A stretch of DNA of 41,716 nt from Jimgerdemannia flammicorona (lineage: Eukaryota), in the NCBI GenBank assembly GCA_003990765.1, contig RBNJ01000101.1:1-41716 (forward strand), written 5' to 3'. A program made the translations under genes and the position numbers. Below are positions 3,001-40,835 of this stretch, piece by piece. How positions within the stretch are numbered: the stretch's first letter is position 1; every line of letters starts with the position of its first letter. The notes under the pieces are model-generated. The model was given only the letters and a program-made list of their open reading frames with translations, was not told the DNA's origin and ran no database searches.

Positions 3001-3300
3001 TGGTCTATAAATAACTATTCTAAAGAACCATATTGGGATCCTTAAGACAAGAAGCAGTCTGGGATTACTATTGAAAGAGAAGTCATTGATTTGAACTATA
3101 TTTGAGAAATACTACTTATTGCTAGGAACTACAATCTCATGATTCTGTTTCCAATCAAGAAAAAGGACTGATTGATATAGATATTGATCTTTCCAGTCCT
3201 TTAGCCAAAGATTATAGAAGTCAAGAAGTTGGAGGAAATAGAAAGAGAATAGAAAGGATTCAGATCTATAGAAAGAGGAGTATTTGTTAGTATCAAGATT
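1..3300 (+). mobile_element. Degenerate Ty3/Gypsy pol remnant A (aspartic protease, long spacer, RT N-terminus, dUTPase); extends beyond window start
   Basis: Protease motif LIDTGAAVCVI starts at 226. RT N-terminal motifs (VELLNKYQDIF...QKLYRIP...IQELLDNRVI*PSTS) at ~2600-2850. dUTPase at ~2872-3275. Many stop codons and essentially no CpG. Confidence 0.85.
2872..3275 (+). pseudogene. dUTPase domain (trimeric type) within Gypsy remnant
   Basis: Manual translation gives LPEYKSEKIAGIDI (motif 1), TRSSLG (motif 2), EVIDLNYI*EI (motif 3, GVIDxDYxGE decayed), KKD*LI*ILIF (motif 4, GDRxAQ) and ERE*KGFRSI (motif 5, RGxxGFGST). One frameshift near 3065. Confidence 0.85.
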
Positions 3301-3934
3301 ATTGAACTGGATCACAGAAAGGAGAAAATCACTATCTGCACTCCTTTCTCTACTACCTTACTGGTTACAAGATTTGGTAGGTGATCTTCCAAGTCCCCTT
3401 TCCCCTATTATTACTCCCTCTACCTCAGGTTGGTTTGCTATACCTATATAGGCATAGTGGGAGGAGAGCAATAGTGATGAGTTGCCTCTTTATCAGTGTT
3501 AGATTAGTGTCTTCTCCACTTTTTCATGGATTCTGGTGCCTTTAGCTGTATCTGGGGTATACTCATTTTGGTATGGTACCTTCTTCTTTTTATTATTACC
3601 AACAAGATATTGTCTTGGTGTGTCATGGGTTACATAGAGAGTCAGCTGATCTTGGGCATCAAGTATCTAGTGTAGGTTATCTGTAGGTCCTCAGTATCTG
3701 TAGTGGGGCCCTCTGGCTTTGGCAAGCTTCCCAGCAAGCATGGTTCTGGCATATGTGACTGTTTTTTGAGTGTTATCAGGATGGGAGGAGAGATGGCCAT
3801 TATAGATAAATTATGATAAATTAGTTGAGTACCAGGCTAGGGGTAGTCATTGGGACTGGAGTAGACAATATTTCAGTGAGGCCTTTCAATTGGCTGGTGG
3901 GGGGTGGGGTGGTGCAGGGGCTGGTATCCTGGCT

Positions 3935-4080
3935 GTATCCAACTAGAACTGAGAGCTAATGCAGTAATATGATTGAGGCCCACAGGCTTAGAGAGTGGGA
4001 TCTTCCTTATTTGGCTATATCTGACTGGAACCAGGAGTTGACATGGCAATATGATTGAGGCCCACAGGCTCAGGGAGTGG
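3935..4080. repeat. Two-copy ~81-bp tandem repeat
   Basis: Core aatatgattgaggcccacaggct at 3966-3988 and 4047-4069, with similar flanks. Confidence 0.75.
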
Positions 4081-4507
4081 AAGTGGGGTCTTTTCTGGCC
4101 CAAGCCTATGTGTAAGTCCTTTGTGTAAGATTCTGCATATAAGTCCTTTACTCACCTACTTTGAATCTGCTTTGCTCTCTATTGGTTAGTTGGGGGGTTT
4201 TTCTTTGCCTCAGGCTTTCTTTTGGAGTTTGGGGGGCTATTCTTTATTCAGTCCTGACACTGCTAGATCTGATGTATAGGTATGCTCTCACATACAAATG
4301 ATGATCCAGCCCTGGTGAGCAGATAAGTCTAGTCTATATCATAGGGGTCAATGCCAGTGTTTGACAGATATAGCTGAAGCAGTGAGACTGCTGGACAGTT
4401 TAGTAGCCTAGGTTAATGGGGGGATATTGTTCAGTGGGTGGTGGGGGAGAGTTTTGGCCTATATAGTCTAGGTTCTCTTTCAATAAAAATCTGTAGGACT
4501 ATAAGTC

Positions 4508-4511
<4 letters not shown>

Positions 4512-4561
<50 letters not shown>
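4512..4561 (+). repeat. 50-nt poly(A) tract between two retroelement segments
   Basis: Run of A seen directly. Confidence 0.9.
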
Positions 4562-4563
<2 letters not shown>

Positions 4564-4599
4564 AGGAAATCACAAACAAGTATAGCTATATCATTGAAG

Positions 4600-7500
4600 A
4601 GGAATTCCCACTCAAGAAGGAGCTCAAAAAGATACTCTACAAATTCAAGGATATCCTATCATAGATTTTAAGGATATTAAAGAAAAAACTCTATACTACT
4701 ATTATAATATATAGATACATATAAGAGACATCAAACTAATCTATCAAAAAATAAGTCCAATTTCACCAGCCTTTCACAAATAGCTCAGAGAAGAAATCAA
4801 GCAGATAGAAGAAGCCAATATCATTAAAGAAGCCAACAGTCCTTGGGCTTCACCAGTTATACTAGTTCTGAAAAAAGAAAGCAAACTAGGAGAATTTGTC
4901 CCAAGACTCTGCACTGATTACAGAAAGCTCAACCTAACTATAAAGAAGGATTACCAACCACTGCCCCTCATCAGTGACATCCTTATAACTCTGAGAGATA
5001 AAGTACAGTATTACAGCACCTTGAATTTATACTCAGAATTCTACCAGATTGGCCTTACTGAAATAATAAGTAAAAAATCAGCCTTCATCACTCCAGATAG
5101 AATCTATGTCTATCTGTAAATATCATTTGGAATATGCAATACACCAGCAAGCTTTTAGTGAATGATAAACAAAATCTTCTACTATGATATGAGAAGATAG
5201 ATGATGGTTTATATAGATAATGTTATTATCTACAGTAAGATAGTCAAAGAATATCTACAGTACATCCAGCAGATGATGAAAAGCTAAAGAAGCATGGGCT
5301 TTATATCAAGTCCAAGAAGTATAAGTTTGTAGAAATTGAGATCTCCTATCTTGGCCATATCATCAACTAAGATAGAATACATATAGATCTATTTAAGATC
5401 TAAGCAGTAGTAGCATATCCAAGGCTCACTACTATCACTGAAACCCAAGCTTTCATAGGACTTGCCTCATACTACTACAGATTTATCAGAGAATTCTCTA
5501 ATATCACAGGCTCAATTTATAAACTCAACAAGAAGGATATCAAGTTCTAATAGACTAGTAGATAATAAAAAGTATTCAATAAACTCAAAATCAGGCTGAC
5601 CTAAGCACCTATCCTCAGAAGACCTAATTGGACTCAAGAATTTATCCTGCAGACAGATGTAAGCACATAAGAACTAGGAGAATTTTTAGCTCAAAAGAAA
5701 GACAAAGTGGAGTATATCATTACATATCTAAGCTGAGAAACTTGAGAAGCTGAAAAAGAGTATGAATCCTATAAGTTAGAATATCTTGCAGTTATCTGGG
5801 CTGTAGAGAAGTTCTACTACTATCTTGTAAGAAGATACTTCACTATTCAGATAGACCACTCAGCTCTCACCTGGCTACTGATCACTAGGCAATCTAAAGG
5901 AATCTATGCCAAATGGATTATAAAGTTGTAAGCTTATGATGTAACTATTGTGTATTGTCCTAAAAGAACCAATACCAATGCAGATGCCTTCTCATAGATA
6001 CTCTGAAGGACCCCCAACCAGCAAATCAACTATGAATAAAGAACTCTACTATAGAATTATCACCTACCTGAGAGAGCAAAAGATGCTCCAATATCTGGAA
6101 GAATGAATACAAATAATTATCAATAAAACATAGAAACAATTTGAGATTAATGGAGAAATACTAAAGAAAGAAAAGCTACTAGTCATATCTGAATACAAGA
6201 AGAAACAAATAATGAAATCAGTATATAAACTTAGCTATCTAGGAGGAACAAATACCTATGAAAAAGTAAGAAAAACAATATAGTGGTCAGAAATGGAGGA
6301 AGACATCAGACAATTTGTCAAGACCTATGACAAATACCAGAAATAGAAATAAGATAAATAAAATAAGATCTTGAGATCAGCACACATAGAACTAGTATTC
6401 TTTGTATATATTGTAATAGATATAATTAGCTCTCTACCCTTAACTTTGACTGGTAACTAATATGTATATCATTATAGATCTTTTACAAAATAGATAGAGG
6501 TAGAACCTCTCAAGAAAGCCAATATATAGTCAATTACTAATTTCTTCTACAAAGAAATCATCTGCTGATTTAAGACCCCAGTATAAGTAACTACAGATAG
6601 AGAAACAGAATTCATGAATCAGTTCTTTGAGGTTCTCTATAAGAAGTATAAGATCTAGCATATTTGGACTATAGCCTATCACTTTTAGAGAAATAAATAA
6701 GTAGAAAGACTCTCAAAAACATTATTACCAAGATCTATAATAACTATAAAAACTGGAATCACTATCTGCCAACAGTATTATCTGCTCTCTGAGATATCTA
6801 ATCACAAAGTACTTATTTTACCTCTTGAGAGATGCTGTTCAGAGAAGAAAGTTCTCAAGAAACTTTATCATCTAATAGAGATGCTATATAGAAATACATA
6901 GATATAGAAATACAGAGATTATATCAAATCTGAGGATTATATAACCAAGATACAGATACTATAACTGAATAATATAGAAAAGATTCACAAGCCTCTAGAG
7001 ATTATCAAGATAGAAGACAAAGTTCTGGTATATTGGAATATAATAGAAGCTTCATAGTCATAAAAACTGAAGCCTAAGTAGAAAGAACCCTATCTTGTAT
7101 AAGATATAAAAGAAACTACCTTTTGGTATAAAAACTCTCAGACACAATCATCTCTACTACCATTTACCAAAATTGACTCAAGAAGTATTATGGCTAGTCA
7201 ATAAAGTATAGTCATAGCTCTCAAGATTACTAGTGCTGCACAATGAGCTATAGAAAGGCAATGGTGTACTACTAAGCTACCCACAATGGAGGAATTCTTC
7301 AACAGTATCCAAAGTATAGTACAGTTATATCTGTTATAAATTTCATACTTTAAGGCCTATCAGAATTAGACAGAGCTTCAAGAATACTTCAAGTTAGGAT
7401 GACTACTGAATTCATAGTAAGAGATGAGAAAAGAAGATTGAATTAGAGAGTGTCAGCTCTTCTATATTCAGATCTCTATACTAAATAAGTATATAAGTTA

Positions 7501-8283
7501 TTTAAGAAGAATGAGTCAGCCCTAGCTCACTTTTAAGAAGTAATTCCAAGAGACTTCATATAAGTCATTATTGAGATAATATGATGGCACAGATTGTATA
7601 GTATAAGAAGATACAGCTTGTGGAGACTTGGAAGTTCAAGTAAATAGGATATTTTAGAAATGAATCACCTATTCAGGAGAAAGTTGTGATGGTTGATCTA
7701 AATTAGAATATAAATCAAGAAAATAAATATTTGATCATAGTATCTGAACTCAATTCCAAAATATAGTATAGCCTTATACATAAATAGCAGTCATATTTTT
7801 ACAAATGTAGAAACTTTATAAATGTAGAAATTCTACAGATGTAGAATCTTTATAATTATAGAGATTTCACAGATATAGAAGATCTATACTTGTAGAAAAT
7901 GACTCACAGAAAACATAGTTATAACTTAGCCACCTTATAGCTAGCAAACTTATATAAATATCTCAGTATTTAGAGTAAATAAACCTCAGATCAAAATAGT
8001 TTAAGTAAAGAAAAAGCAAAGGAACTAATAAGCCTACAAGCAGATATACTTTGAACTCACCCACCCCTATATCTCAAGGACTCTATAGAGTTAAAGAAGA
8101 TCAAGTTTTCAAGATATAGAAATCCAACATACTTACATAGTTATATATTTACTATGTTATATTAATAAATATAATAAAATATCTCTTTCCACTATAGGAA
8201 GTAATATAGATTAAATTGAGTATATCAGATATATATTTTGTTCATTCCTTAAATAGATACTAAGTTGTTTTATTTTCCATACA
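4600..8283 (+). mobile_element. Degenerate Ty3/Gypsy remnant B: RT-RNase H-integrase, downstream extra ORF relic and probable 3' LTR
   Basis: RT: SPWASPVILV at 4838, CTDYRKLN, SFGICNTPASF, and YIDN (decayed YIDD) at 5210-5221. RNase H: FILQTD...KLEYLAVIWAVEKF...IDHSAL...NADAFS at ~5640-6000. Decayed integrase zinc finger and core at ~6200-6850. RT-RH-INT order is Gypsy. Confidence 0.9.
7685..8283 (+). repeat. Probable 3' LTR of Gypsy remnant B
   Basis: A purine tract (caggagaaag) precedes TGTGATGG at 7685. The segment ends in CCATACA at 8277-8283, an imperfect terminal inverted repeat, exactly where the Copia relic is cut. No second LTR is in the window to confirm. Confidence 0.5.
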
Positions 8284-10950
8284 GTCCTTATAGAAACTCT
8301 TTAGATATATTATTAATAATCTATTTACTAAACTATTTCTTATCATTCTTTTTAGGCTCAATTTTTCTATATATCCTAAATATTAATATTATATATTAGA
8401 TATATATATCAGGTATAATTGTCATATATGTAATGACTTTCATACTACTTAACATATTATTGATTATATAAAAATTATCTCATTTTGATACTATCATAAT
8501 CTTCTTATTATTCAAGTTATATACTATTGCTTTTATTGGATATATATATTTCTTTATTACTATGGACTATTATTTTACTAATTAAAAAAAGATTCTTACC
8601 TATCTTTAGAGTATATAGTATATCTTAAAAAGTACTAGCAGACTCTGTAATATTTTCATAGAGATGTATACTGATATTTTCTCTTTTTTGAGTATATATA
8701 ATATTATTATCACTTAACTTGATTAGCACTAGATGTTCAAATGGCTCATATATAGAGAACTGTTCTCAGTAAGCTATTATATATTGTGTAGCATCTGAAT
8801 CTATAAGCTATATATTATTATTATTAGCTATATTGGTATATACTTTACTTATATTATTGCTTTTTACTAGCTAAAAAATGTATGGCTTAGATATGAATAT
8901 AGATATCTTCTCCAAATACTTAGTATATATTACTTGTATATAGAATATATGTATCTCTATCTTAGTTATTATTATTTTTGATAATATTTATATTATATTA
9001 TCTTTTACTGTTATATTTCTTTCCATTACTCTTATATTATTAATATTGGCTTTCATACTTATTTTCATTATTCTTCTTATTCTTATAATAGTAGTTATTT
9101 TACATATATCTATACTTATCACAGTAATAATAGTTTCAATCAAACTTAAATTTGTGTTTTTGATCTTCTTATCTTATCTCATAATCTGTAGAATACTTTC
9201 TCATCATTGTTATTATTACTATTTTCTTGACATATCTCTTTATTGATGAGACTTATTGTTATATAGATATAATCTATGAGTTTTCTACTTTTACATATAG
9301 CTGCTACTACAATATTATATATCTCAGTGAGATCTCTTATAAGGGTCAAAACCTTATCTTTATTACTAATATACTCTACTAATATACTTAGGAAATTCAC
9401 TTGATTTATCAGATTATTAATATATTTAGCATATTCATAGATACTTTTCTTAAGCTTTATTATAATTGAATAATTGAGATTTTAGATGGAATCAATTCAA
9501 TAAGAATGTTTATATATAATTATTATATAGAGTCTCCTATATATTATAGGCTATTATAGTATATATTTAAGCTTTATTTGTTAGTTTGATAATATAAAGA
9601 TAATCTCTTCTAAACTTAATAATTATTTATAGTATTATAATCTTGAATCTATATTTATAGTTTTATATACTCTATCAATCTATACTCTTCTAAGAGATTG
9701 CTTATAAAGAATATCTAAATGGTATAATTCTTATCAGCAAAGATAGATATAGACCTCTTGGCTATATTTATACTAGCTATAGAAACTGTGATCATTATAT
9801 CTATTTTAGAGATATCTATATCTGTTTATAATTCTAAATCATATATATTTATATATTAAGTAATATAACTCAAAGATGATATAGTTATATATATATAAGG
9901 TACATTATTAAGATATATAATAATGAGAATTTCAATACTATATATAATATTACTAAGATATTGATTGAGCTATAGACTAGTGGTTTTAATAAAGTAGCTA
10001 TTAAGTCTACTATAATTCTAGATAAACTTGATATTCTTGATAGTAGTTTTGTAATCATACTAGAACTACTAGTATCAGGTTCAGGGGTTTCTTAATTATT
10101 ATTTTAAGTCAGAATAATATAGTAGAGACTTTACTGAATCTGATAGCCTATAATCCTCATTATTAAATTATCTTTATTTATATATAGAAGCCTTAATAGT
10201 AGAGATAAAACTTTCTTTAATTAGTGTAATATCTCTTATAGTTCAAAAAAAGTCTTAACTTTATAGTAGCAATCATTAAAGAGGAAATTTAAAAAATATT
10301 CACTTGTAGCTTTGATAGATTTCTATATATATTTCTCATAAAAGTAGTTATTAATTAATTTTTTAAACTCTTCTTTGATACCTTGAGTATAGATAATCTC
10401 TTTATTGAGTATAATGAATATGTCAAATACTTTTTAAATAGTTTTATTGTTGAGTTTGTTAAATTTCTCTTAGCTGATATATATGAGTCTTAGTCTACTT
10501 AGTAATAATTCTATTGACTTCTTTAGCTTAGTTCTGAGGAGTAGCTAGAGTGAAGATATTTCTTAATTTTATATTACTATTAGTATTAATGATGGGTTCT
10601 TGTGAGGTTTTCTATACTTATAGTAGATTTTTAAGAGAGGTTACTTGTAGATAGAAGAAACTTTCACTGCTATTAAATTTTAATAAAACTATATACTGAT
10701 AGAATTATATATTATAGATAATTAGAGATAATTATTAGCTTTAAGTTCTAAGTTCTATAAAGAAGTACTAAGTTCCTTCTATCTATTGTAGAGATATAAT
10801 CTAAATATCACTTTCAGATTTTTATACTAAGTAGAGATATTGTACTTATATTCCAAGTTGATCAGGCTTAAAATTATTAACAAGTTGGATCTGAGAGTTT
10901 TTGATAAGAATACTTCTTTATTCTTAAGAGAGAAAAAGCCAAACTGGAGT
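8284..10950 (-). mobile_element. Extremely decayed Ty1/Copia relic (gag - protease - GAG-pre-integrase), truncated at the Gypsy LTR
   Basis: Minus strand reads LIDSDATQYII (Copia protease LDSGATxHM) at ~8775-8807 and DILYTLKIGKNLFLISK (nVLYVPxLxxNLLS) at ~8575-8625. I*Y*YLGYI...MIRNSLVNRL...FYKDC (WHxRLGH...CxxC) lies at ~8284-8395. The upstream boundary is approximate. Confidence 0.7.
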
Positions 10951-11329
10951 TATATATAATATACTCAGTATAGAGAATATTTATACTATAGCTAAATATA
11001 ATATACTAGTATAGTTATACTATATATATATATATAATATTTATGACTATTATATTAGAAATTCTATTGTAAATTCCATTGAAAATTCTGTTGTAATTTC
11101 CAGTAGCTTGTAATGAACCATTATAGTTTTCATTAAGTTAATATATTTTGAAGTTAGGATAAAATTTTGAATTAAATCAGACCTCAATTCAATTCAAACT
11201 TAATTCAATTTGATGACTTCCAATTTGATTTAATTGATTTGTTTGAGAGCACTAAGTAGTGCTCCGAACAAGTCAATTCAAATCAAATCTGGATTTGATT
11301 CGTCACATGACAGTTTGATTCAAATCTCA

Positions 11330-11700
11330 AATCCGAAGCCATCCGAATCAACTCAGATTTAATCTGAATCACCCCATCTGAATCACCCCATCTGAATCAC
11401 CCATCCGAACCACCCCAATCTGAATCACTCAATCCAAATCACTCAATCCAAATCGCCCCATCTGAATCGCCCCATCCGAATCACCCCATCCGAGTCACCC
11501 ATCTGAATCATCCATCCGAACCACCCCAATCCGAATCACTCAATCCGAATCACTCAATCTGAATCACTCAATCTGAATCACTCAATCCGAATCACTCAAT
11601 TTGAATCCTTCAATTCAAATCCTTCAATTCGAATCCTCCAATTCGAATCTTTCAATCTGAATCCTCATCTGAATCCTTCAACTGAATCCTCCAATCCAAA
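11330..11700 (+). repeat. Left subterminal tandem array (~14-bp units TCCGAATCACCCCA / TCCGAATCACTCAA)
   Basis: About 20 or more visible units, many with CG>TG decay (TCTGAA). Such arrays are typical transposase-binding repeats of hAT elements. Confidence 0.85.
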
Positions 11701-11800
11701 TTCTCCACATGACTCATATGCTGGATGCGTCTACAATACAACATACATATATGCATACACATATATACATACACATGCACACACAAACATACAAACACAC

Positions 11801-14391
11801 ATGTTGACAGATCAGTCTTCAACAGTTCACAGTACCAATGATGCTTCAAGTCAAACATCCCTGATAGTTCCACACCTTCTATGCAATTCTTGCTCTGAAA
11901 TCTGGCAATATTGTGCTAAGATAGGAGATGATATTATTTGTAATTATTGCAGGTAAAAAATTAAGATGCACCTATTGACACTTTGTTTTGACATACACAT
12001 GATATTGTTTTGACACACACATGATATTATTTCATCCACCCCCATGAACTGCACCAGCCAGAAGTTCAAAATGCTTGGGGGTACAACTTCGAACATAAAT
12101 CGATACATAAAAGACAAGTACTCTGACAAAATCAAAAAGAACACAAAGAAAAATAAAATCGACATCCAAGCTGTGGTGGGTATGTTTATCCAATTGCCTG
12201 ATCATTTCTGTACCAATAACACCATTTAATCAAAAATATTTAGCCATACTCTTCAGCAGAATTTCGAAATCGGCTCATTTGCTAGATTGTGTGCACAGAC
12301 CAGCCATTCACAACCATCGAGAGTGATCAATTGCATAGCATCTTTGGCCTCCTCAAGCATGATTTATATTTGCCAAGTGCTGATACTATTCGCAAAGATG
12401 TCCTGGAGGCCTATAGGAAGGAGCATGACAATCTCCGCCAGATACTTCAGGTAAAATAAGGGCAGCACTGTGACCTTTGCAAGCTGAATTATATAAAAGA
12501 GCTCACCAATTTAACCTCACATTCAATAAGCAGAATTCAGCAGGCAAAATTTCGTTTATGATTGATACATGGACATCCCCCAATGCAATTTCGTTTCTGG
12601 GCATTACCAGTCATTGGATTGACCTCGATTGGCAGCTTAAATCTCTCACCCTTGACTTTGTCAAACTTGCTGGCCCTCATTCTGGAGACAACATCACAGA
12701 TGCTTTTATTAGTTATATCCGGGAGCTTGGGATCACCACCAAGATAAAAAAGGGGGGCTTGCTGTCAGGTCGGCATTTTGAGGAAGATCCTAAACCAAAC
12801 CAGATTTTATTGGTTACTTATTTTCACATAAATTTGTCAACCAAATATTTCAAGTACAGATTTTGGCCATTATGACAGACAATGCCACAAACAACTCAAT
12901 ATTTTTCCAAGGTTTAGCGGCCAGCCTCAAACAGGAAAACATGGCCTTCAGTGCAGAAAGCTGTCATGTGCGATGCCAGGCCCACATACTGAACCTCGCT
13001 ATTCAGAACTATCTTACGCATGTAGATAAAACATCCGAGAGAGGAGGGGCCCTGAGTATAATTTCCAAGCTGTACAAACTGGTTGTGTTGGTCCAATCGT
13101 CCCCACAACAATGAGACAAATTCGCTGCGCAGTGTAGGGCAATCAGTTTAGCCCCGAAAGAGCTTATATTGGACGTCTGTATGCATTGAAACTCAACATT
13201 TGCAATGATCCAGCATGCACTGGAGTTTGCTGTGGTGTGTATTCTTTTTTTCTTCGGTTGGCTGAAGTAACTGTTTCAGATAATGAAAGATTTATTTTTA
13301 AAAAAAAAAAAAAAAAAAAAAAAAGCCAATAGATTCAATGATGGCTGCTGACAAGGAAATACAGGCTGAGGCTCTAGGTGAAAGCGAGTGGGATGTACTT
13401 AGGAATGTTGTCAGAGTTTTGGAAGTAAGTGGTAGTTACCCTGACTCCACACTCATTTTGTCTGCCTCCGTACAGTGCAATATCTCACCACATATAACTG
13501 CCAGTGTTTCGATGATTGTATGAAGGATATAGTCAAACAAACGACCCCGACAATAAGCTCTGCGATCCCGGTATACAACCTTCTGATTGACCAGCTAGAG
13601 GACAAGTTCAAGGATAGGCTGGAGGGTTACAGTGATTTATGGTTAAGCCCGGATCAGAGAGATGCTGTGGAGATTGCTCTAAGCAAGCTTAGAAAATACT
13701 ACTCCCAAACAGATACTGCCATATACTCAATCAGTACAGGTATGTTGATGTCGGTATGTGGTCATTGCTCCTTCCAAAACAGAGGAAACCCTGCAAAAAC
13801 TCACTCTCCTTTTCTTCAAACAGTGCTGGACCCATGCTTAAAGCTACAATACCATAAAGATCAGGGCTGGGAGTAGTACTTCATTGAGAGAACCAAGCAG
13901 GCTGTAATTGAAATATACCAGAAAAACTATGCACCACCACAAGGTTCTGGCCGAAGTCCAGATGAATATGCCGAGGGATCCCTCCTGTCCCACATTTACT
14001 TTGACAGAAAGAAGAAGAGGGAGCCGTCAGTAGAAGAGCTGCCATCAATAGATGAACTTACTATTTATCTCGCCAGCGACTGTGTGGTCCTGCTGGAGGG
14101 TACGGAGGTGCTCAACTGGTGGAAGGTGGGTTGTCAGGCGGGCATTGGGCCAATTTAATCCACCAATCTAACCACCACTCTATCCACTGGAGTGTGTAGC
14201 TGCATCAAACAGACTTCCCCAGCCTGTGTGGTATGGCTTGGGACTATCTGGTGATTCCTGCCTCCAGCACTCCCATCGAGTGGATGTTCTCAGGTGGGGT
14301 GGACCTTGTTGCCCCAAAGAGGTGTACGCTGAATGCTGAGACAATCTGGGCATGTATGTATCTGAAGTCTTGGTGGGGCTCGGACCGCTAA
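11801..14391 (+). pseudogene. Multi-exon hAT transposase (BED finger, DDE core, C-terminal dimerisation domain) with premature stops
   Basis: SEIWQYC...IICNYC / GTTSNINRY (BED). FMIDTWTS and IMTDNATN (catalytic Asp residues), RCQAHILNL (CxxH), VLDP, VLNWWK, FPSLCGMAWDYLVIPASSTPIEWMFS and LKSWW, ending at a stop at 14391. GT-AG introns. Several stops are explicable by C>T/G>A. The start is approximate. Confidence 0.92.
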
Positions 14392-14529
14392 AATTCAGCA
14401 GGTCTGCAGATAAGTTGGTTGGCCTTGTGGAATATTTAATATCTTTCAAATTAATAAAAAAGGAAAAAAAAACCTGAGGACTTGGCCCAGAGTTTGCGGC
14501 CAAAGTGAGGCAGGGTTGGCAGCAGCAGC

Positions 14530-14990
14530 GGAGAGAGCATGCAATATTTGCGGCCCTCAGCCAGCAGCAAGGGGTAGCCCCAAGCTGCCAGTGCCTGAGT
14601 CAGTGGGCAGGTCAGTGGGCAGGTCAGTGGGTGGGTTGGTGGGCAGGTCAGTGGAGGGAGCACACAAAATTTGTGGTCCTCCACCAGCAGCAAGGGGCAG
14701 CCCCAAGCCGCAAGTGTCTGGGTTGGGGGGGTAGGCGGAGGGAGCACACAAAATTTGCAGTCCTCCACCAGTAGTGAGGGGCAGCTCCAAGCTGTCAGCA
14801 CCCGGGTCAGTAGGCAGGGTCGGTTGGTGGGTGCGGGGTCAGCAGAGGGAGCATGCAAAAATTTGTGGCCCTCCGCCAGCAGCAAGGGACTACCCCAAGC
14901 TGCAAGTGTCCAGGACAGATGGGGCAGGCGGAGGGAGTATGCAAAATTTGCAGCCCTCTGCTAGTGGCATAGAGGTAGCCCCAAGCTGCT
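14530..14990. repeat. Five ~57-bp GC-rich direct repeats with G-rich spacers between the two convergent hAT genes
   Basis: Core GGAGGGAGCA-CAAAATTTG-G-CCTC--CCAGCAGCAAGGGGCAGCCCCAAGC at ~14530, 14653, 14737, 14845 and 14929. The spacers are built from GTCAGTGGGCAG-like units. Confidence 0.85.
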
Positions 14991-15254
14991 AAGAAGTCCG
15001 GGGCAGAGGGTGCTTCTGGTGGTCGGAGGGCATTTCTGGCAGTCGAAGTCACTAGTTCAGGTCTCACAGGTACCCCGGCCCTACACTGCAGTGCCGCACT
15101 GGTGGCACTACAGAGCAGGGCTGAGGGGCTGGTAGGGCCCTGCATAATAGCTAAGCTAGTGCTACATAAGAGGCATCTGGCCCAATCCCCCCATATAAGA
15201 CTGCCCAACCCACACAAAATAGCTGTCTAACCCTCATGAAAGATTGTCTAACCC

Positions 15255-17348
15255 TCACAAAAACTGCTCCACCTGCCGGTCCCAGGCCTTGATGAGCCTG
15301 TCATCCATTGTGAGTGCGACAACTGTTGTGTCCGAGCTCTCCTCAAAGGCAACAGTACCATAGTGGTCATGTGGTTGGAATAGGACAGCTATGTTGGCTA
15401 CAAACGGGACCCCAAAACCATAGGTGAGGTTGTACCAGACTTTGCTGCTATCCTTCCAGGTTGGGCCCTTCCTTTTTGGGATGTAAAACATTACCGGGGT
15501 GACATTGTTATCTGTGTGTGTGAGCAGAGAAAGGTTGCGCCTGACATATCCTGATGTGATGCAAGTGTACAGTTGGGTGAACCCTTGGCCCAGGACCTCA
15601 TACTGCCAGGCTGTACTGGTAGATGCCTGCCCTTGGTCCAGCCCTGGGAGCCCCGGCTTGGAAACCTGCCAAAACAGACAGCAACCAATCAGTCCTTTTT
15701 GCATTCAGGGGGCAGAAACCCCCTGGGCTGCACAAACCCCCTGGGCTGCAGCACCCCAAAAAAGCGGAGCTCCTCACCTCATATGGTATGCTAAATTGCA
15801 CCAAGAATGTATGTACAGCCGCACCAAGATCACCACCAAGCTGGCCTACTGTATGCTCTACTAATCTGCTCAAAGAAACCCAGATCATAGCCGCCATCGC
15901 CGCACAGGCCGTGTCGTACTCGCATGCAGTTTGCTCTTCGACGGCACTTCTAAAGTTCCGGTAGGGGTACAGAATCTTGTGTATCCCTGGAATTGTATCA
16001 AAAGAGTATGTCGGCGAAGAGTGTGATTTATCTGGGGAGGGGTTAAAAAAAAAGGGAGATGAGTGTGGGGGATTTTGGAACCCACTCTTCGCCAGTGTTG
16101 CAGTATACCCAATTCCCGTCCAAACCCCCCCTCCTTGTTTTTTTCACCCCCTCTTCCCTGCCACCCAGTATTTGATACAATCCTCGTAAATCTCATTAAT
16201 GTGGCAGCGAAGCTCATTGCTGTAGAGGTTCCTTACCACCATCACAACCACCTCTCCACATTCATTAATAAAGATATGATTATCTTCATCATTGGTTACT
16301 CCTGCTGGCCAATGGACCCCTTGGTCGAGTACGATTGGCTCTGATTCGAATATAGACCCCCAAGCCTTAATGATGATGCTGGTACTGCTCATGCTGAACA
16401 TCTTACCCTCAAATTTCTCTATTTGATCAGATGCCAGATGTGGTTAAACTCAGGTAACTTTGAACTCTCCTTTTCAATGGAACTGAGCCCTGATCTGAGA
16501 GACCGAGATAAGTATGCAGACAGGTTGCATGCAGGCAGGTTGCGTGTGGGTTACGTGTGGGCAGATTGCATGTGGGCGGGCAGGTTGCATGTGGATGGAT
16601 TGTGTGTGGGTTACATGTGGGTGTGCATGTTTTTTAGGGGGAGACCACATAAAAATGAAATTAAATAAAACATGGAGATGGGTATTTCAGAAAAGAGCAT
16701 GAGTGAGTGAGCTGCATGCCGACAAGTTACATGCCGACAAGTTGCACACCGATGAGTTGCACGAGTTGCACAAGAATTGCTCATAAAGGCTTACTTCTGT
16801 TCCTTTTGAGACCTCCGCCACGTGATGCATTGACTCAACAGCTCAGCCACTAATGGCATACCCCACAACATCTGCCAGCCTTTCTTCATCTTGATCAGAT
16901 GTTGTGAATAAAGTTGGCAGATCTTGCCATAGAGCTGTGGACCCTAAGAAAAGCATGAGATGAATTGGGTCATGCTGGGGAAGTTTAAATAAACACAAGT
17001 AAACAAGTGGCGACTGAGTGAGCAACCTACATCTACTATTGGCTGCTCCAAAAAGGCTACTGCATACATAGCTGTGAGGTCTGTGAATTCCGAGGTCCGA
17101 AGGGCCACCATGAGTTGTTGCCAGAATTCTCCCTCATCCCCACTATTGCCATCACCACTGCCACCGCCATCGCCCCTTTGGCTCTTGATGAGCAGCTTGT
17201 GTGCTGTCCATATGAGAAAGAATCTAACATTGTCAGCAGAGAGTGTGTTTCCACCTCAAATACTCCCTCTTTTGATGATCATTACAGGGTGAAAAATGAG
17301 TAGACTGGACCAACATATGAATTAAGAGCTGCTGTTTTGTTTGCTCAT
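15255..17348 (-). pseudogene. Five-exon cargo gene (~523 codons), putative TET/JBP-like 2OG-Fe(II) dioxygenase, inactivated by stop codons
   Basis: Exons 17348-17031, 16974-16795, 16494-16086, 16031-15778 and 15665-15255. All introns are GT-AG with compatible phases and there is no frameshift. Internal stops are TAA/TGA (from CAA/CGA). The product has GVWTGIGY, HTD at 15510-15518 and a distal AVLFQPHDHYGT. The gene model is solid, while the family call rests on motif recognition only. Confidence 0.65.
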
Positions 17349-17354
17349 GATGTG

Positions 17355-17633
17355 GCAGGAAAGAACAAAGAAAAAGAACAAAGAAAAGAGAGAGAACAAA
17401 GAAAAGAGTGATGTCACCAAAGTGCAGTAGAAAAAAAAAAACAAGAGCGAAATGAACAAAAGAAAGGGTGATGTCACCAAAGATTTCAATCCGAATGGAT
17501 CAATCTGGATGGGTCAATCTGAATGGATCATCCAGATGGATCATCTAGATCAGATCACGAGACCAATCTGAGTTGATTCAAATCCATCATATGACGAATC
17601 TGAATCGAATCTCATCTGGATCAACTTCATTCA
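17355..17633. repeat. Right subterminal repeats of the hAT element
   Basis: Repeated AAGAACAAAGAAAAG, two copies of GTGATGTCACCAAAG, and ATCCGAATGGATCA-like units next to the right TIR. Confidence 0.7.
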
Positions 17634-18340
17634 TTCGGAGCACTAGCACTAAGTATAATAGTTTTAGTTTTTTTATAAGAAAGTAAATAAGTTCTAAAAT
17701 ATTCAAATAGTCTAAATAGCTTAAAGAGATATTATATATTCAAGTAGTTCTTGAAGATTTTCAGAAAGAAAATATTCTGAGATTTATTAAGCAGACAAAA
17801 AGAATATTTATATAAGATCTGAAAGAAAGATCCAGAAGAATCTTAGAAATAAAAAGAAATCTCAAAAGAATATTAAGAAAGAGTCTTGATAAGAAAGTTT
17901 TACAATATTCCAAAAGATGTTATGACTACCTAAGATAAGATACTTGATGCTGACACAAGACAAGAATGTTCTAGTGAAGTCTTGATGCCAAGAGAAGATT
18001 TCTAAATGTTCAGAAAGTACTGGAACATTGTGGAATATTTAGACAAGAAAAAACTAGAGAAAAGATGTGAAAATAGGCTATGACTAAAGAAATTATTACA
18101 CTGATGGTCACCAACCCATAAGGATATTAAAAAGCAAGGGAATACTTCAAATGAATAAATATAAATATATGTTTTATTGTTGTAAAGGATGCCTTGCATA
18201 ACAAATCTTTCGAAAGTCAAGAGCCCCATATAATGCTGATGGCGCAATGAATGATAGATGGAAAAGTTGGCTAACTATTCGTATATTCCATCAAAAGAGA
18301 TATGTTTATTGGATGTACCTTCACATCATATAAGCCAACT

Positions 18341-19905
18341 TCACAAAGACAGAGCGGCGGCCAAAGAACGCCGAATCGAAGCCGATATATTGGATACACG
18401 ACTTCGCCGAGTTGAAGCCGATCTATTCGAGATACGACTACGCCGATTCGAAACCGACACATCTGATACACTACTGAAGTATTTCCGGTAAAAAAATGAG
18501 GATATGACGAGTGAACATTGATTTGAGCGCGTATTAAGGAAGTTTGAGTACGAGATGAACATCATGCATATGTGCGAAAACATACTTATTGTCCTCTGCG
18601 GCTCCCAGAAGACTTAGATTCCTGAGAGAGGCATACGTGTGAAATTCACTGCTTGCAGTAGATGCTTCGCCAAAGAGAAAAGATGTGTTTGCGCTTGAAG
18701 CCTTGGATTGAGCAAAATGCAATTGACGCCTCTCATTTATGAAACATCTTGTCTTGTGAGACAAAGGTATCACAGGTAGCGTAAAATCTCGATCACTCCC
18801 AATGTACATAATTGGTTCCCCGGGAGCTGTCCCAAGACATGGCGTGAGGGAATCAAATAGAACGGTAGCGGAAGGTCGCCTGTCTGGGTCAACTTTCCAA
18901 CAATTCTGTAATACCCGTTTAAGCGCCGTTGGCATGTGCGGTATCATTTCTTCTCGCAGACAATTATTTGAACTGGCGATACCCCGTGGAGGAACACCGG
19001 TTACGAACTGCCACAGTAGAGTGCCAAGACAGTAAATATCAGAGGATTGTGTATAAGGTGCACCATTGAAGACTTCAGGCGGAAGATATGCAAGCCGGCC
19101 GTAGACACCATGTGAGCCATGTAGCATGTTGATGGCGCCGCTGAGTCCGACGTCGATGATACGTAGCTGGCGCCATTTTCCCCTTGTGACAAGGTTTCCT
19201 GGATGAAGGTCCCCATGGATGACGCCTAGTTTATGCAAAACCATGACGCTTCGTACCAATTCGATAGTAGCAGCCATGATTTCTGTCCAGTTCGAGAAAT
19301 TAAGTGGTTCTTGTTCAACATTCCCATTCGCGCACTCCATGACGAGGAGATAGTTGTTCGAAGTAGGGTCGGGGTATGGAGAGAGTCCGATTACAGGCAT
19401 TGTGATAGCATTGCCAATGGATGTATGTGTATGATATGAGATGTGCGTTGCCACCATGACCTATACCGAAAATAGAAAGGTTCGAGATACAATGTAGGTA
19501 TGAATGTTGGAGAGAAAATCTAGAATATCGCCGTCAGCTTACCTCGTGGGCCATACTGATATCAATCGTTTTCAATGCAAATTTCCGTCTAACGATGGTT
19601 TTCTTACGTCGAATGGCATGAATGGTTGGAAAGGCAAAGCCGGTCGGCCACTCGACGATCCCGGTGTATACGGTCGAGTATCCGCCTTTCCCCAAAACCT
19701 TCAGGTTGCCACTGAATCTTTCAATCGGTATCCACACAAGGTACTCGAGGAGCTCGAGAACATCCAACCTTGCCAGGTGAAAGCGCAGTTGCTCGTCGTT
19801 ACTCGGAAAGTTGAGTTTGTTGGCTTGTATCACCAAAGTTCGCTCTTGGGCGACGACGCCTTTCGCAAAGAGTTGTTTAAACGTTTGGAGTTTTTCGGCG
19901 TTCAT
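18341..19905 (-). CDS. TKL-like protein kinase, paralog 1 (exons 19905-19543, 19460-18586, 18473-18341)
   Basis: WIP...LGKGGYSTVY, FALK, HGDLHPGNL, IIDVGLS, YLPPE, SDIYCLG and CWKVDPDRRP. GT-AG introns are conserved in all paralogs. Ser/Arg-rich repeat tail. Confidence 0.9.
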
Positions 19906-21358: not shown

Positions 21359-22889
21359 TCACAAAGACAGGACGGCGGCCAAAGAACGCCGAATCGAAGC
21401 CGATATATTCGATATACGACTTCGCCGAGTCGAAGCTGATATATTCGATACACGACTACGCCGATTCGAAGCCGACACATTCGATACACTACTAAAGTCT
21501 CGCCGGCCAAAATGAAAATATGACGAGTGAACACGTGTGATAAGGAAGTTTGAGGATGAGATGATCATGCATATGTGCGAAAACGTACCTATTGTCCTTT
21601 GTGGCTCCTAAAAGACTTAGATTCCCGAGAGAGGCATACGTGTGAAATTCACTGCTTGTAGTAGATGCTTCGCCAAAGACAAAAGATGTGTTTGCGCTTG
21701 AAGCCTTGGATTGAGCAAAATGCAATTGACGCCTCTCATTTATGAAGGATCTTGTCTTGGGAGATAAAGGTATCATAGGCAGCGAAATATCTCGATCACT
21801 CCCAAGGTACATAGCTGCTTCCCCGGGAGCTACTCCAAGACATGGCGTGAGGGATTCAAATAAAACGGCAGCCGAAGGTCGCCTGTCTGGGTCAACTTTC
21901 CAACAATTCTGTAATACCCGTTTAAGCGCCCCTGGCATCTGCGGTATCATCTCTTCTCGCAGACAATTATTTGAACTGGCGATACCCCGTGGAGGAACAC
22001 CAGTTAGGAGCTGCCACAGCAGAGTGCCAAGACAGTAAATATCAGAGGCCTGTGTATAAGGTGCACCATTGAAGACTTCGGGCGGAAGATATGCAAGCCG
22101 ACCGTAGACACCATCTGAGCCGTGTAATATGTTGATGGCGCCGCTGAGTCCGACGTCGATGATGCGTAGCTGGCGCCATCTTCCTCTTGTGACAAGGTTT
22201 CCTGGGTGAAGATCCCCATGGATAACGCCTAGTTTATGCAAAACCATGATGCTTCGTACCAGTTCGAGAAATTAAGCGGTTCTTGTTCAACATTCCCATT
22301 CGCGCACTCCATGACGAGGAGATAGTTGTTCGAGGTAGGATCGGGGTTTGGGGAGAGTCCGATCACAGGCATTGTGATAGCACCGCCAACGGATATTTGT
22401 GTATGATATGAGATGTGCGTTGCCACCATCAGCTATACCGACAAGTAGAAAGGTTCAGGATCAATAATGAGATACAATATGGTATGAATGTTGGAGAGAA
22501 AGGCTAGAATCTTGCTGTCTACTCACCTCGTATGCCATACTGATATCAATCACTTTCAATGCATATTTTCGTCTAACGATGGTTTTCTCACGTCGAATGG
22601 TATGAATGGTTGGAAAGGCAAAGCCGGTCGGCCACTCGACGATCCCGGTGTATACGGTCGAGTATCCGCCTTTCCCCAAAACCTTCAGGTTACCACTGAA
22701 TCTTTCAATCGGTATCCACACAAGGTACTCGAGGAGCTCGGGAACATCCAACCTTGCCAGGTGAAAGCGCAGTTGCTCGTCGTTACTCGGAAAGTTGAGT
22801 TTGTTGGCTTGTATCACCAAAGTTCGCTCTTGGGCGACGACGCCTTTCGCAAAGAGTTGTTTAAACTTTTGGAGTTTGTCGGCGTTCAT
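21359..22889 (-). pseudogene. TKL-like kinase paralog 2, frameshifted by a 31-bp deletion (exons 22889-22527, 22432-21589, 21491-21359)
   Basis: Same motifs as paralog 1. It lacks the TEIMAATIEL segment at ~22260, which splits exon 2 into two ORFs (22229-22429 and 21492-22247). Confidence 0.88.
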
Positions 22890-23421
22890 GATTAAGAGTT
22901 GGTTAAGATTCACAATCGATGGATTAGAGAAAATATGTCCGACCCATACGTGGTAGCTTATTACATTATGTAATGCAGTAATTTATCTTATGCCCAACTC
23001 AAAGATCATGTGTGTAACCTTTAGCATGTAGATGAAATGAAATAAAATAAAAACGCTTTCCTACGTCGCCTTTTGGCATTGTCCTCATTTTATCGAGTAA
23101 GCACATTAATTGAAATTTTTTTGCCTGTCCAACATGGCAATTTCTGGAGATGACCTTCTCAACATGCCAGCTTGACTTAGCAACAGCTCTTCTATTTGGG
23201 CCATTACCAAAAATAATTGACAGCAATTTTTTGTTCCGTGACAGCAAAAAGAAAATAACAATATAGGAAATGTTTACTAACAATCCAATGACATTTATAG
23301 AGTGACGTCTAATTATTACACGTGTCCACGGTGGTACAGAGACTTTGATTGACCTGTATTAGACTCCGTACCAATATGAGATTGGTGGCTAATATAACCT
23401 AATTGCTGCATCGACTTCACG

Positions 23422-25496
23422 ATGAGACTCCTCCTCGCCGTCTTCTCGTATATCCTCGTCCTCCAGGCGACGTTCGCCGACGCCCTCCCCCTTAACAGCC
23501 TGATCAAAACTAAGAGCGGTCTGATACAGGGCTTCGTCGACAAAATCACCAACGTCGTCAACTTCCTTGGAATTCCCTATGCAGAGCCACCCATCGGCGC
23601 GCTACGCTTCCAAACCGCCGTGCCTGTCAAGCCTTGGTCAAATGTGTTTAACGCCACGACTTTTGGTCACGCCTCCGTCCAGCTGCCGCTGCCGCCGCTG
23701 AAGGAAGCCATTTTTCATCAGGGTGTTTTACTCGATCAAAGCGAGGACTCACTTAATTTGAATATCTGGACGCCGAATGCCAATAGTAAGAAGCACGCCG
23801 TCATGGTAATCACACATCTCTTCACCTCACATGACAGCTCGTTTGTCGAACTCTTTGAAGTTCCGCAACACCAACTATTCTGTTTTCCATATCGCAGTTG
23901 TATATTCACGGCGGAATGGGTCTCACCGGAGCCGGTTCCTTTCCTTGGCACAATGGGCAAAACGCAGTTTCTCAGGGGGACGTTGTATACGTGACGATAA
24001 ACTATCGCCTCAACGCCTTCGGTTGGATTCATCTCTCTACCGTGGCCCCAAACGACTTCCCAAACACAACCAACCTCGCTATCTCGGATCAGCTGACGGC
24101 GCTGAAATGGGTATACGATAACATCGCACGTGAGAGTTTCTTTCAGCTGAAATGTGTACATCTGCCATGACTTCGATGTAGCATTATTCCTAACGACGCT
24201 TCTCTGCCTGAACCTGTAGAGTTTGGAGGCGATCCCAATAAGATAACTCTCATTGGCCACTCCGCTGGTGCCATGTCGGTCGCAACGCTCCTGTCACTCC
24301 CGGATGCTCGCCCTTACATTCGTCGTGTCATCCTTGAAAGTGTCCCTTGGACGATGCAGACGCCATCAGGTTACAGCAAGGACATAGCGTCGGCTTTCCT
24401 TGGTGCTTTAAACCTGACTGCGGAGACAGCGAAAGCAGTCTATAACCTTGACGTTCAGACCATCCTGGTAAATGTTCAGATGATTACAGATATGAAATGA
24501 TATTGAGGCCGATATTTATATTCCGGGTGGTCATTGCGGATATTACGAGTTGAGCTCTGTATACATGTGACTTTATGCCCGATATTGACGAACCGATTCC
24601 TTTATCCATTCATGTCATTCTCATAGAGCACAACCGAAAGCGTCATGTCGAGCAACACCAACTTCATCGACGGTCTGACCCCCTACGCCCTCACCATTGA
24701 CGGCAAGCAATTCTCCGAAGCATCCCTGCAAGCCCTTGCCAACAACCCACCCCACGGTATCGACATTATGCACGGCATAAACTATGACGAGTTTCATTTC
24801 TGGACACAGACGAGGCCCGGCTTCGCCGACACCACCGAGGAACAAGCGCTCGCCTACTTCGCCCAAGTTTTCGAGCAACCCCAAGACGCGTATAACATTT
24901 TCAAGAACGCCCTCCCAGCAGGCACACCCCCTTACGAGATTGTTAATCGCATGGGAACCGACGTCCTCTTCCGTGCCGGGACATGGCAATTGGTGGAGCA
25001 GCTCGCAGCTGACGGGATCAACGCCTACACTTACCAGTTCAATTACCGCTCTAACGCCTTCAACAACACTCTGGGCGCCTGCCACGAAATTATCTCCCCG
25101 TTCACTCGCGATAACGTGGCCATCTACGAGCAGCTCGGGTCGACTTTGCCAGGGTTTGGTGCTCTGCCCACTCGGGCTGACAAAGAGAAACTAGCGAGGA
25201 ATATGGTGGCGACGTGGACCAGCTTCGCGAAGACGGGCAACCCGAACAACAAGCATATCCCGAAATGGGCGCCGTACGATTCCGACAATCACAATGTGAT
25301 GATGTTTGCCTACAATAGCTCTGGTTATGATATCGGATATGATGTGATGCAGAGCGACCCTGATGCTGTTTTGCGCAACGAATGGAGACGGCAGCTATCC
25401 TACTGGCTGTTGAGTAACTTAGAGAATCTTTATGATTACGAATACACAGATTTTGTAACCACCGCAATAAGCGATGAAGATTGTTACTCATGCTAA
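23422..25496 (+). CDS. Secreted type-B carboxylesterase/lipase (alpha/beta hydrolase); exons 23422-23805, 23898-24129, 24220-24467, 24627-25496
   Basis: Signal peptide MRLLLAVFSYILVLQATFA. Motifs FLGIPYAEPPIGALRF, SEDSLNLNIW, YIHGG, VTINYRL and FGGDPNKITLIGHSAG (nucleophile Ser). GINYDE (acid), GACHE (His) and WTSFAKTGNPN follow. GT-AG introns are in phase. Confidence 0.93.
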
Positions 25497-30296: not shown

Positions 30297-31870
30297 TCAC
30301 AAAGACAGGGCGGCGGCCAAAGAATGCCGAATCGAAGCCGATATATTTGATATACGACTTCGCCGAGTCGAAGCCGATATATTCGATATACGACTTCGCC
30401 GATTCGAAGCCGACACATTCGATACACTGCTAAAGTCTCGCCGGAAAAAATGAAAATATGACGATTGAGCATTGATTTGAACGTGTGGTAAGGAGTTTGA
30501 GGATGCGATAACATTATGCATATGTGCGAAAACATACCTATTGTCCTCTGCGACTCCCAGAAGGCTGAGATTCTTGAGAGAGGCATACGTGTGAAATTCA
30601 CTGCTTGTAGTAGATGCTTCATCAAAGACAAAAGATGTGTTTGTGCTTGAAGCCTTGGATTGAGTAAAATGTAATTGACGTCTCTCATTTATGAATGCTC
30701 TTGTCTTGCGAGACAAAGGTATCGGGGGTACCTTACAATCTAAATCATTCCAAAGGTATACGATTTCATCCCCAGGAGCCGCTCCAAGAAATCGCGTGAG
30801 GGATTCATATAAAACGGTAGCGGAAGGTCGCCTGTCCGGATCAACTTTCCAGCAATTGCGTAATGCCCGTTCAAGCACCATCGGCATCTGCGGTATCATC
30901 TCTTCTCGCAGACAATTATTTGAACTGGCGTTACCACGTGGAGGCACACCAGTCATGAGCTGCCACAGCAAGGTACCAAGACAGTAAACATCAGAGGCTT
31001 GTGTATAGGGTGCGCCGTTGAAGACTTCCGGCGGAAGGTATGCAAGTCGGCCGTACACACCCTCCGAGCCGTGTAGCATGTTGATGGCGCCGCTGAGTCC
31101 GACGTCGATGATGCGTAGCTGGCGCCATTTTCCTCTTGTGACAAGGTTTCCTGGGTGAAGGTCCCCATGGATGACGCCTAGTTTATGCAAAACCATGACG
31201 CTTCGTACCAGTTCGATGGTAGCAGCCATGATTTCTGTCCAGTTCGAGAAATTAAGTGGTTCTTGTTCAACATTCCCATTCGCGCACTCCATGACGAGGA
31301 GATAGTTGTTCGAGGTTGGGTCGGGGTTTGGAGAGAGTCCGATCACAGGCATTGTGATAGCATTGCCAACCGATTTATGTGTATGATATGAGATGTGCGT
31401 TGCCACCATGACCTATACCGTCAAGTAGGAAGGTTCGGGATCAATAATGAGATACAATGCACGTATGAATATTGGAGAGAAAATCTTGAATCTTGCCGTC
31501 AACTCACCTCGTGGGCCATACTGACATCAATAATTTTCAATGCATATTTCCGTCTAACGATGGTTTTCTCACGTCGAATGGTATAAACGGTTGGAAAGGC
31601 AAAGCCGGTCGGCCACTCGACGATCCCGGTGTATACGGTCGAGTATCCGCCCTTCCCCAAAACCTTCAGGTTACCACTGAATCTTTCAATCGGTATCCAC
31701 ACAAGGTACTCGAGGAGCTCGGGAATATCCAACCTTGCCAGGTGGAAGCGCAGTTGCTCGTCGTTGCTTGGAAAGTTGAGTTTGTTGGCTTGTATCACCA
31801 AAGTTCGCTCTTGGGCGACGACGCCTTTCGAAAAGAGTTGTTTAAACGTTTGGAGCTTGTCGGCGTTCAT
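30297..31870 (-). CDS. TKL-like protein kinase, paralog 3 (exons 31870-31508, 31412-30538, 30429-30297)
   Basis: Same motif set (GKGGYSTVY, YALK, HGDLHPGN, DVGLS, YLPPE). Reading frame is intact. Confidence 0.9.
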
Positions 31871-40403: not shown

Positions 40404-40835
40404 CCCTTCATTTCATTGTCTAAATTTAAGTTTCTACTGGATTCTAGACCATTTGTGGGCGGACAGCAACGCCTACAATCCTTCGACATTGCATCTTGAA
40501 CCATATTGTTGTGACTGGGATTCTGTCGTACTCTTATTGTAATTACGTCATACGACTATACATGTGTCGGCGAAATTCGCCCCAGTTCTTCGTCATGCAA
40601 AAACCGACGTCCCACTTGACGGGCTCCAATTATTTTGCGTTTTGCGAATATACATTGGTGATCACTCAAAGCCAGTGTCGCTGCACGTGCTCTTCGATAT
40701 CAGGTGGTGGCGATTCCACCAGTCCACTCGTCAGCGATACATTTCCGCTCCCCCTATTTAAAGTTCCTACGTCCCGACCTCACTTACCATATTCCAAACC
40801 ACCATCCTACCATCACCACAAAAGAAACCCACATC

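Follow-up and report, generated by a model that had tools for sequence, protein, structure and literature searches.

A two-gene hAT transposon with a probable TET/JBP-like cargo

Positions 11257-17645 of a 41,716-nt stretch of Jimgerdemannia flammicorona DNA (contig RBNJ01000101.1; the whole stretch analysed is referred to here as the window) form one hAT DNA transposon with two convergent genes: a remnant of the hAT transposase gene on the plus strand and, on the minus strand, a spliced five-exon gene that we refer to as the cargo. We propose, with a probability of about 0.6, that the element is a defunct copy of a hAT transposon with two genes, of which the cargo encoded a divergent TET/JBP-like dioxygenase. 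The proposal draws on the structure of the element ends, on intact protein relatives that cover three of the five cargo exons, and on a by-eye comparison of these exons with TET/JBP-like proteins carried by other fungal transposons.

The element was delimited by its terminal inverted repeats (TIRs), its target-site duplication (TSD), its subterminal motifs and the dimerisation domain of its transposase. The 12-bp TIR TAGTGCTCCGAA (12/12 bp match) occurs exactly twice in the 41,716 bases of the window, on opposite strands, and the 8-mers immediately outside both copies are identical (GCACTAAG; a 7-bp duplication lengthened by one chance match is not strictly excludable). The motif GATTCGTCAYATGA forms an inverted pair 40 and 45 bases inward of the ends, with two matches, a count that none of 100 shuffles reached, and a perfect 15-nt inverted pair joins 11345-11359 to 17565-17579. 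Together, the TIR and these two further inverted subterminal matches tie both ends into one element. Both ends also carry repeats of a 14-bp unit (Table 1), which, by analogy with other hAT elements, we take to be transposase-binding repeats. A blastn comparison of the element with the window found no second copy there, and no empty-site paralogue of the element flanks is present in the window.

In the left gene the C-terminal hAT dimerisation domain was recognised by Pfam (PF05699, E 8.3e-10, 38.8 bits where the cut-off is 21.4; E 9.8e-9 in a read-through frame), accompanied by a weak zf-BED match that lies below its cut-off (E 0.053, read-through frame). The strings DTWTS, MTDNATNN and RCQAHILNL are presumably hAT-like as well. 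Sequence search with two pieces of the transposase core found no relative of them in the PDB. Since an 8-bp duplication and short TIRs occur together with a hAT domain, we assign the element to the classical hAT transposons. The first-pass annotation of this DNA, made from the letters alone, had already described one hAT element bounded by TIRs and a TSD, and the uniqueness of the TIRs, the presence of GCACTAAG on both sides and the PF05699 match agree with that description. The transposase is dead: at least three in-frame stops (13112 TGA, 13187 TGA and 13874 TAG) fall within conserved transposase blocks. The gap between the two genes of the element is filled by the tandem array at 14513-14990, each unit of which has a GGGG-N3-CCCC-like core.

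The cargo is a real, spliced and decayed gene

The five cargo exons were spliced by coordinate with a script. All four introns are of the GT..AG form and the exons join in phase into 1572 nt, that is, 523 codons and a terminal TGA, in good agreement with the convergent minus-strand gene of five exons and ~523 codons that had been described earlier. The frame is interrupted by seven premature stops at codons 9, 31, 150, 173, 181, 183 and 283; five of these are TGA and two are TAA, the only stop codons that the first-pass annotation had listed. It had also called the copy dead, and this is borne out by the seven premature stops in the cargo and the at least three in the transposase: the cargo copy is dead, as are both genes of the element. 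The 5' end of the cargo abuts the right subterminal repeats. For exons 1 and 2 (~166 codons, with three of the seven stops) open frames and splice signals are the sole basis, and no homologue of these two exons was found. Much of the 300-nt intron 2 is occupied by 15-bp repeats (GCAGGCAGGTTGCAT-like) at 16505-16763. No RNA data set was among the sequencing runs listed, where four runs appeared with small shares only (0.14, 0.06, 0.06 and 0.06).

Exons 3 to 5 have intact counterparts. A phmmer search of 1,835,955,588 proteins with the read-through translation of exons 3-4 returned, at E up to 0.001, P0001 (128 aa, matching exon 3 at E 5e-18 with 36% identity) and P0002 (55 aa, matching exon 4 at E 8.4e-7 with 51% identity) and nothing besides, and a word-based search returned P0003 (136 aa), which aligns with 97% of the exon 5 query at 77% identity (E 2.7e-62). 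All three are intact fragments and singletons on metagenome contigs of 755-1019 bp, a length that gives no gene context. Because each of exons 3, 4 and 5 is matched by an intact protein relative, the cargo is a real gene and not a chance frame, and because the relatives span 36-77% identity, the protein has been conserved over real divergence.

By-eye comparison with transposon-borne TET/JBP proteins

Complete DNA transposons with a TET/JBP gene inside them have been described for 11 lineages, one of which is hAT (Kojima 2025, PMC12730594; the comparisons below concern the part of this paper and its supplement available to us). The paper distinguishes three types of transposon TET: PU (rusts), AG (Agaricomycetes, relatives of CcTET) and PE (Pezizomycetes and Agaricales). 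In the PE type, HxE replaces HxD, and the type is remote from known TETs (HHpred E 1.4 to CMD1; PMC12730594). We compared the cargo and its relatives by eye, with no score, with ten PE-type rows of Table S1 of that study. Over the ~300 residues of exons 3-5, about ten blocks are colinear with the PE type and partly with the PU type (listed in Table 1). In an ungapped stretch of 36 columns covering blocks 8-9, a hand count against Zisupton-24_AB gave 11 identical residues for P0003 and 7 for the window copy. At positions where P0003 and the window copy differ, the PE residue stands in P0003 five times and in the window once, which is the asymmetry predicted by decay of a window copy belonging to the same family as P0003. 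Two four-letter words shared with the cargo family, LHGT (3 occurrences) and MVVR (2), are confined in the available supplement to PE-type rows, where they lie at homologous blocks.

The putative active-site residues can be followed in exon 5, which contains HTD, YGxG (YGxR in P0003), FQPHDHYGT (LHGT in P0003) and ..DDRL. The peptides quoted in the first-pass annotation are all present, and its HTD ... PHDHYGT is located in this exon. The annotation had read an HxD followed by a downstream His as the iron-binding layout; its HxD is retained as HTD, unchanged in P0003, whereas the distal position needs to be shifted. The most likely distal iron ligand is the ..LHGT His, ~50 residues downstream of HTD, which P0003 has in ..QPHDLHGT, by eye like ..QPxLLHGT of the PE type. 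This is the residue that follows the two His of the earlier motif, and since the window has Tyr (TAT) there, the window copy lacks the distal ligand. The Arg of YGxR is likewise replaced in the window copy, by Gly. HTD, the PHD..GT block and R123 (..DDRL) are invariant between the window copy and P0003. R123 follows the last strand and aligns by eye with ..SSRL of the PE type, where an Arg is found at the same place; it is a candidate for the distal Arg, which had been called not obvious. On this by-eye reading we consider it rather probable that the cargo encodes a TET/JBP-like dioxygenase.

A number of observations weigh against this identification. Profile, sequence and fold methods all failed to identify the cargo as a dioxygenase. 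Pfam yielded no match to Tet_JBP (which we take to be PF12851) or to any 2-oxoglutarate (2OG) oxygenase for the fragments, searched with E limits of 1 or 10, for P0001-P0003 or for the six read-through frames, and PDB sequence profiles of two alignments (A1 and A2) brought up nothing relevant with E as high as 10. The phmmer search with exons 3-4 reached no PE- or PU-type protein, whose presence in the library is presumed only. Word-based searches yielded neither longer relatives of the exon 5 fragment (137 candidates, none of which scored) nor relatives of similar length to the 281-residue read-through (1460 candidates, none of which scored), and scans of JGI metagenomes with A2 and A1 gave 173 and 334 pattern matches, respectively, with none confirmed by tblastn. 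Neither the exon 5 fragment nor P0001 had a usable feature match in the protein atlas, and the structure neighbours of P0001 all had a template-modelling (TM) score of 0.41 or less and belonged to unrelated bacterial or viral clusters. AlphaFold2 modelled exon 5 from 2 sequences and exons 3-4 from 3, with confidence scores (pLDDT) of 30.6 and 29.9, respectively, which makes the models unusable for fold comparison. Within the by-eye alignment itself, the PE hallmark HxE is absent, with HTD in both the window and P0003, and Thr replaces two Arg of the PU type, one in the motif GWR and one in the strand TRLG, in the window copy and its relatives. Alignments made by eye and with both sides known can mislead, and the linkage of cargo and transposase was observed in one copy only. 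The TET/JBP-like identity given in the first-pass annotation is therefore carried by the colinear blocks, with every computed method negative or uninformative.

Alternative explanations

If the second gene were a passenger of some other family, either a captured host gene or a transposon accessory protein, then the HxD...H layout and the block matches would reflect chance or over-reading. The failure of all computed dioxygenase and TET/JBP searches would then be expected, as would the two uninformative structure models, the missing HxE and the Thr at two positions where the PU type conserves Arg. What such a passenger would leave to coincidence is the common order of ~10 blocks over ~300 residues, the greater closeness of the intact P0003 to the PE type (11 versus 7 of 36), the restoration in P0003 of precisely those residues expected to matter (the LHGT His and the YGxR Arg), and the confinement of the common four-letter words to homologous blocks of PE-type rows; we regard this explanation as unlikely. 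That the minus-strand frames are open merely by chance is next to negligible. The seven stops and the lack of a homologue for exons 1-2 would fit such an account, but four canonical introns preserve the phase, and for exons 3-5 it is refuted by the relatives that match them (E 5e-18, 8.4e-7 and 2.7e-62).

A different possibility concerns linkage: a TET-like gene may not be a stable part of a hAT family and may have entered this copy by nested insertion or fragment capture, with a Helitron as one candidate donor. Helitron insertion leaves no TIR or TSD. The single copy at hand is compatible with such an event, and so is the position of the repeat array 14513-14990 between the two genes. TET genes have, moreover, repeatedly moved from one transposon superfamily to another, the ends of the transferred segments bearing no signature sequence, and PE-type genes are found on Helitrons (PMC12730594, in the part available). 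However, none of the inverted pairs inspected, the 25 longest of 62 in 14350-17560, brackets the cargo, and the six read-through frames contain no Rep/helicase and no second transposase. Decay of CpG is alike in the transposase and cargo parts (observed/expected ratio (o/e) 0.37 and 0.35), which fits a shared history, and the abutment of the cargo 5' end on the right subterminal repeats is the layout of a two-gene element. A single capture would, in any case, be the origin of every such family. We therefore hold a one-off capture to be improbable too; for the independent nested insertion that the first-pass annotation had named as an alternative, no ends of a second element were seen among the pairs examined, in the one copy available. 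We continue with the two-gene hAT transposon carrying a TET/JBP-like gene as the preferred reading.

CpG loss and a possible role of the cargo

Positions 1-11248 of the window contain 0 CpG where 271 are expected, so that the neighbouring repeats, which had been described as having lost nearly all of their CpG, have in this stretch lost all of it. The first CpG of the window lies at 11265, within the left TIR; on the other side, 17654-18210 is again free of CpG, which resumes at 18211. The element itself has 123 CpG against 337 expected, with a TpG/CpA excess accompanying the two low ratios given above, and 17654-41716 has 1332 against 1249 expected. The hAT element thus lies among repeats whose CpG is fully eroded, and its own erosion is partial. 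Its later arrival is the simple explanation for the CpG that it has kept; slower decay owing to the cargo is possible.

In an intact element, the left gene would supply a hAT transposase, which, once bound to the 14-bp repeats near the ends, would excise the element at its 12-bp inverted termini and insert it elsewhere with an 8-bp duplication. The right gene, transcribed inward from the other end, would encode a protein of ~520 residues whose C-terminal ~300 residues (exons 3-5) would constitute a divergent TET/JBP-like Fe(II)/2OG dioxygenase. By analogy with the transposon-borne PE- and PU-type proteins, the intact enzyme may have oxidised methylated bases, most likely 5-methylcytosine (5mC) at CpG, on the DNA of the element itself, and such oxidation could have countered both silencing by methylation and the decay of CpG to TpG, which has emptied the surrounding repeats of CpG, with the two genes moving jointly as a family. 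Among AG-type proteins, CcTET of Coprinopsis cinerea oxidises 5mC and N6-methyladenine (6mA), as cited in PMC12730594. The same paper puts forward relief from silencing and from CpG decay as a hypothesis for all such elements, with function tested for none (PMC12730594, in the part available).

Genomic surroundings

The CpG-free stretches (1-11248 and 17654-18210) have a GC content of 22-36%, whereas the gene-bearing remainder has a CpG o/e of 1.05-1.10. With stops read through, the block 1-11248 contains on its plus strand a decayed Gypsy-like protease, dUTPase, reverse transcriptase-RNase H and integrase zinc domain, and on its minus strand a decayed copia-type gag and a Pol beta-barrel. The flanking genes look fungal. 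They include four paralogous Pkinase open reading frames, all on the minus strand (18534-19460, 21492-22271, 30297-31412 and 32734-33846; E 6e-20 to 2.5e-22), whose flanks are 84-87% identical at the DNA level and which form a local kinase gene cluster, as well as two ordinary host genes, a carboxylesterase (23398-25496, plus strand) and a fatty-acid elongase, ELO (35139-36256, minus strand). A weak universal-stress-protein match lies at 40662-41309 (plus strand).

Table 1. Features of the hAT element and blocks of the putative dioxygenase domain (PE and PU residues from the available part of the Kojima 2025 supplement)
Feature	Position	Strand	Basis or remark
Left TSD copy GCACTAAG	11249..11256	.	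read from sequence; same 8-mer at 17646-17653
Left TIR TAGTGCTCCGAA	11257..11268	+	one of 2 window matches
Left subterminal motif GATTCGTCACATGA	11297..11310	+	inverted partner 17587-17600; 0/100 shuffles reach 2 matches
Left subterminal array, 14-bp unit AATCCGAATCACTC, 24.6 copies	11361..11701	+	
hAT transposase gene remnant, several exons	11801..14391	+	
hAT C-terminal dimerisation domain	14200..14391	+	PF05699, E 8.3e-10
GC-rich tandem array between the convergent genes, ~5 units 84-123 bp apart	14513..14990	.	repeat families D2-D4, D9
Cargo exon 5, 136 codons and stop, free of internal stops	15255..15665	-	P0003, 77% identical over 97%
Cargo exon 4	15778..16031	-	P0002, E 8.4e-7, 51% identity
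Cargo exon 3, 4 premature stops; putative start of TET-like domain (PIVLD .. GEVVVMVVRN .. GGGVWTGIGYT)	16086..16494	-	P0001
Cargo exon 2, 1 premature stop	16795..16974	-	splice signals and phase; no homologue found
Cargo exon 1, proposed ATG, 2 premature stops	17031..17348	-	splice signals and phase; no homologue found
Right subterminal repeats, 14-bp unit, 4.2 copies	17486..17543	-	76% complementary to left array
Right subterminal motif GATTCGTCATATGA	17587..17600	-	partner of 11297-11310; same shuffle test
Right TIR	17634..17645	-	one of 2 window matches
Right TSD copy GCACTAAG	17646..17653	.	read from sequence
Block 1: cargo PIVLD; PE PIxxLD			by eye
Block 2: cargo GEVVVMVVRN (P0001 GNVVSLVLRD); PE G-E/S-L-V-x-M/V-V-x-R-D/N			by eye
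Block 3: cargo GKRG..GGGVWTGIGYTA; PE SRKGDxG..G-aromatic-S-A-G (PU GGxMWxIGWR)			by eye
Block 4: cargo helix A..A.M.W; PE helix of like pattern			by eye
Block 5: cargo GYVR; PE NYxR			by eye
Block 6: cargo HTD; PE HxE (PU HxD)			by eye
Block 7: cargo PVMFYIPKR; PE hydrophobic strand and ..R (PU FVMFIP)			by eye
Block 8: P0003 SGGIWYDLTYGFRV; PE xGGHFFLASHGVRF			by eye
Block 9: P0003 NTAVLFQPHDLHGT; PE NSLLIWxPxLLHGT			by eye
Block 10: cargo VALTMDDRL; PE FVTSSRL			by eye

Significance and relation to known systems

A transposon-carried enzyme that modifies bases would be a means of counter-defence against genome silencing. The cargo described here is almost wholly missed by the protein databases, in which three short metagenome fragments related to it were found, two by phmmer among 1.84 billion proteins and one by the word-based search; a TET-like protein so divergent that it escapes standard searches would suggest that cargo of this kind is under-counted. 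The present copy is dead and its value is that of a pointer to the family. Since the element has retained a third of the CpG expected for it within a block from which CpG is fully erased, the locus also provides a useful setting for asking whether the enzyme slows decay.

As a tentative proposal, which we put somewhat short of even odds, the cargo may represent a fourth type of transposon TET/JBP-like protein, combining a PE-like scaffold with HxD and with Thr at both positions where PU-type proteins conserve an Arg, on a classical hAT element with an 8-bp TSD. In that case, the range of fungal transposons with DNA-modifying cargo would extend beyond the eleven listed lineages, and the altered co-substrate site could mean chemistry beyond plain 2OG-dependent oxidation of 5mC, as in CMD1.

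With the classical hAT transposons (Ac, hobo, Tam3 and their fungal relatives) the element has in common the 8-bp length of the duplication, short TIRs, repeats next to the ends and the dimerisation domain at the C-terminus of the transposase. Classical hAT elements are not known to encode more than their transposase, whereas this one has a second gene.

The first-pass annotation knew of no described hAT carrier of a TET/JBP gene. One is, in fact, on record: hAT7, found in six Puccinia species, carries a PU-type gene and makes a 7-bp duplication (PMC12730594). Like our element, the TET-bearing hAT7 is a hAT carrier with a TET/JBP-type gene beside its transposase, and the role proposed for it is the same, namely escape from methylation-based silencing or hypermutation (PMC12730594). 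The two differ in that 8 identical bases flank the element described here, and in that the printed hAT7 ends begin with CAACGGTGGGCC.. or CAGCGATGGGCAG.. (5 rows) while this element begins with TAGTGCTCCGAAC; neither the TIR of our element nor its reverse complement occurs in the available supplement. Membership in hAT7 was rejected on these three grounds: the TSD of 8 rather than 7 bp, the different ends and the absence of the TIR from the supplement at hand. The cargoes are distinct as well, since that of hAT7 is of the PU type and the present one has only some PU blocks (GGxVWxIGY, HxD and VMF.IP) along with a PE-like distal block.

The best by-eye match of the cargo is to the PE type, with which the cargo family appears to share the order and spacing of the blocks, the ..QP...HGT block of the putative distal His, the YGxR block and the ..RL end. 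PE-type proteins are also similarly hard to detect by sequence, as the HHpred value to CMD1 cited above illustrates. Unlike them, the cargo has HxD where they have HxE, and hAT is not listed as a PE carrier in the available part of PMC12730594. As the HxE hallmark is missing, we call the cargo PE-like rather than PE type, and as phmmer with exons 3-4 reached no PE-type protein, it would at best be a separate, distant branch. The AG-type TETs of Kyakuja/Zisupton elements and CcTET provide a further parallel as transposon-borne Fe(II)/2OG dioxygenases of basidiomycetes; an AG-type identity was rejected, because the AG blocks NRxTPxHRD, RHGV and GDR have no counterpart in the cargo by eye, as far as the available AG sequences go. 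With hAT already known as a carrier of TET genes, what is new here is best called a classical hAT element with an 8-bp TSD bearing a PE-like, HxD-containing TET-like gene.

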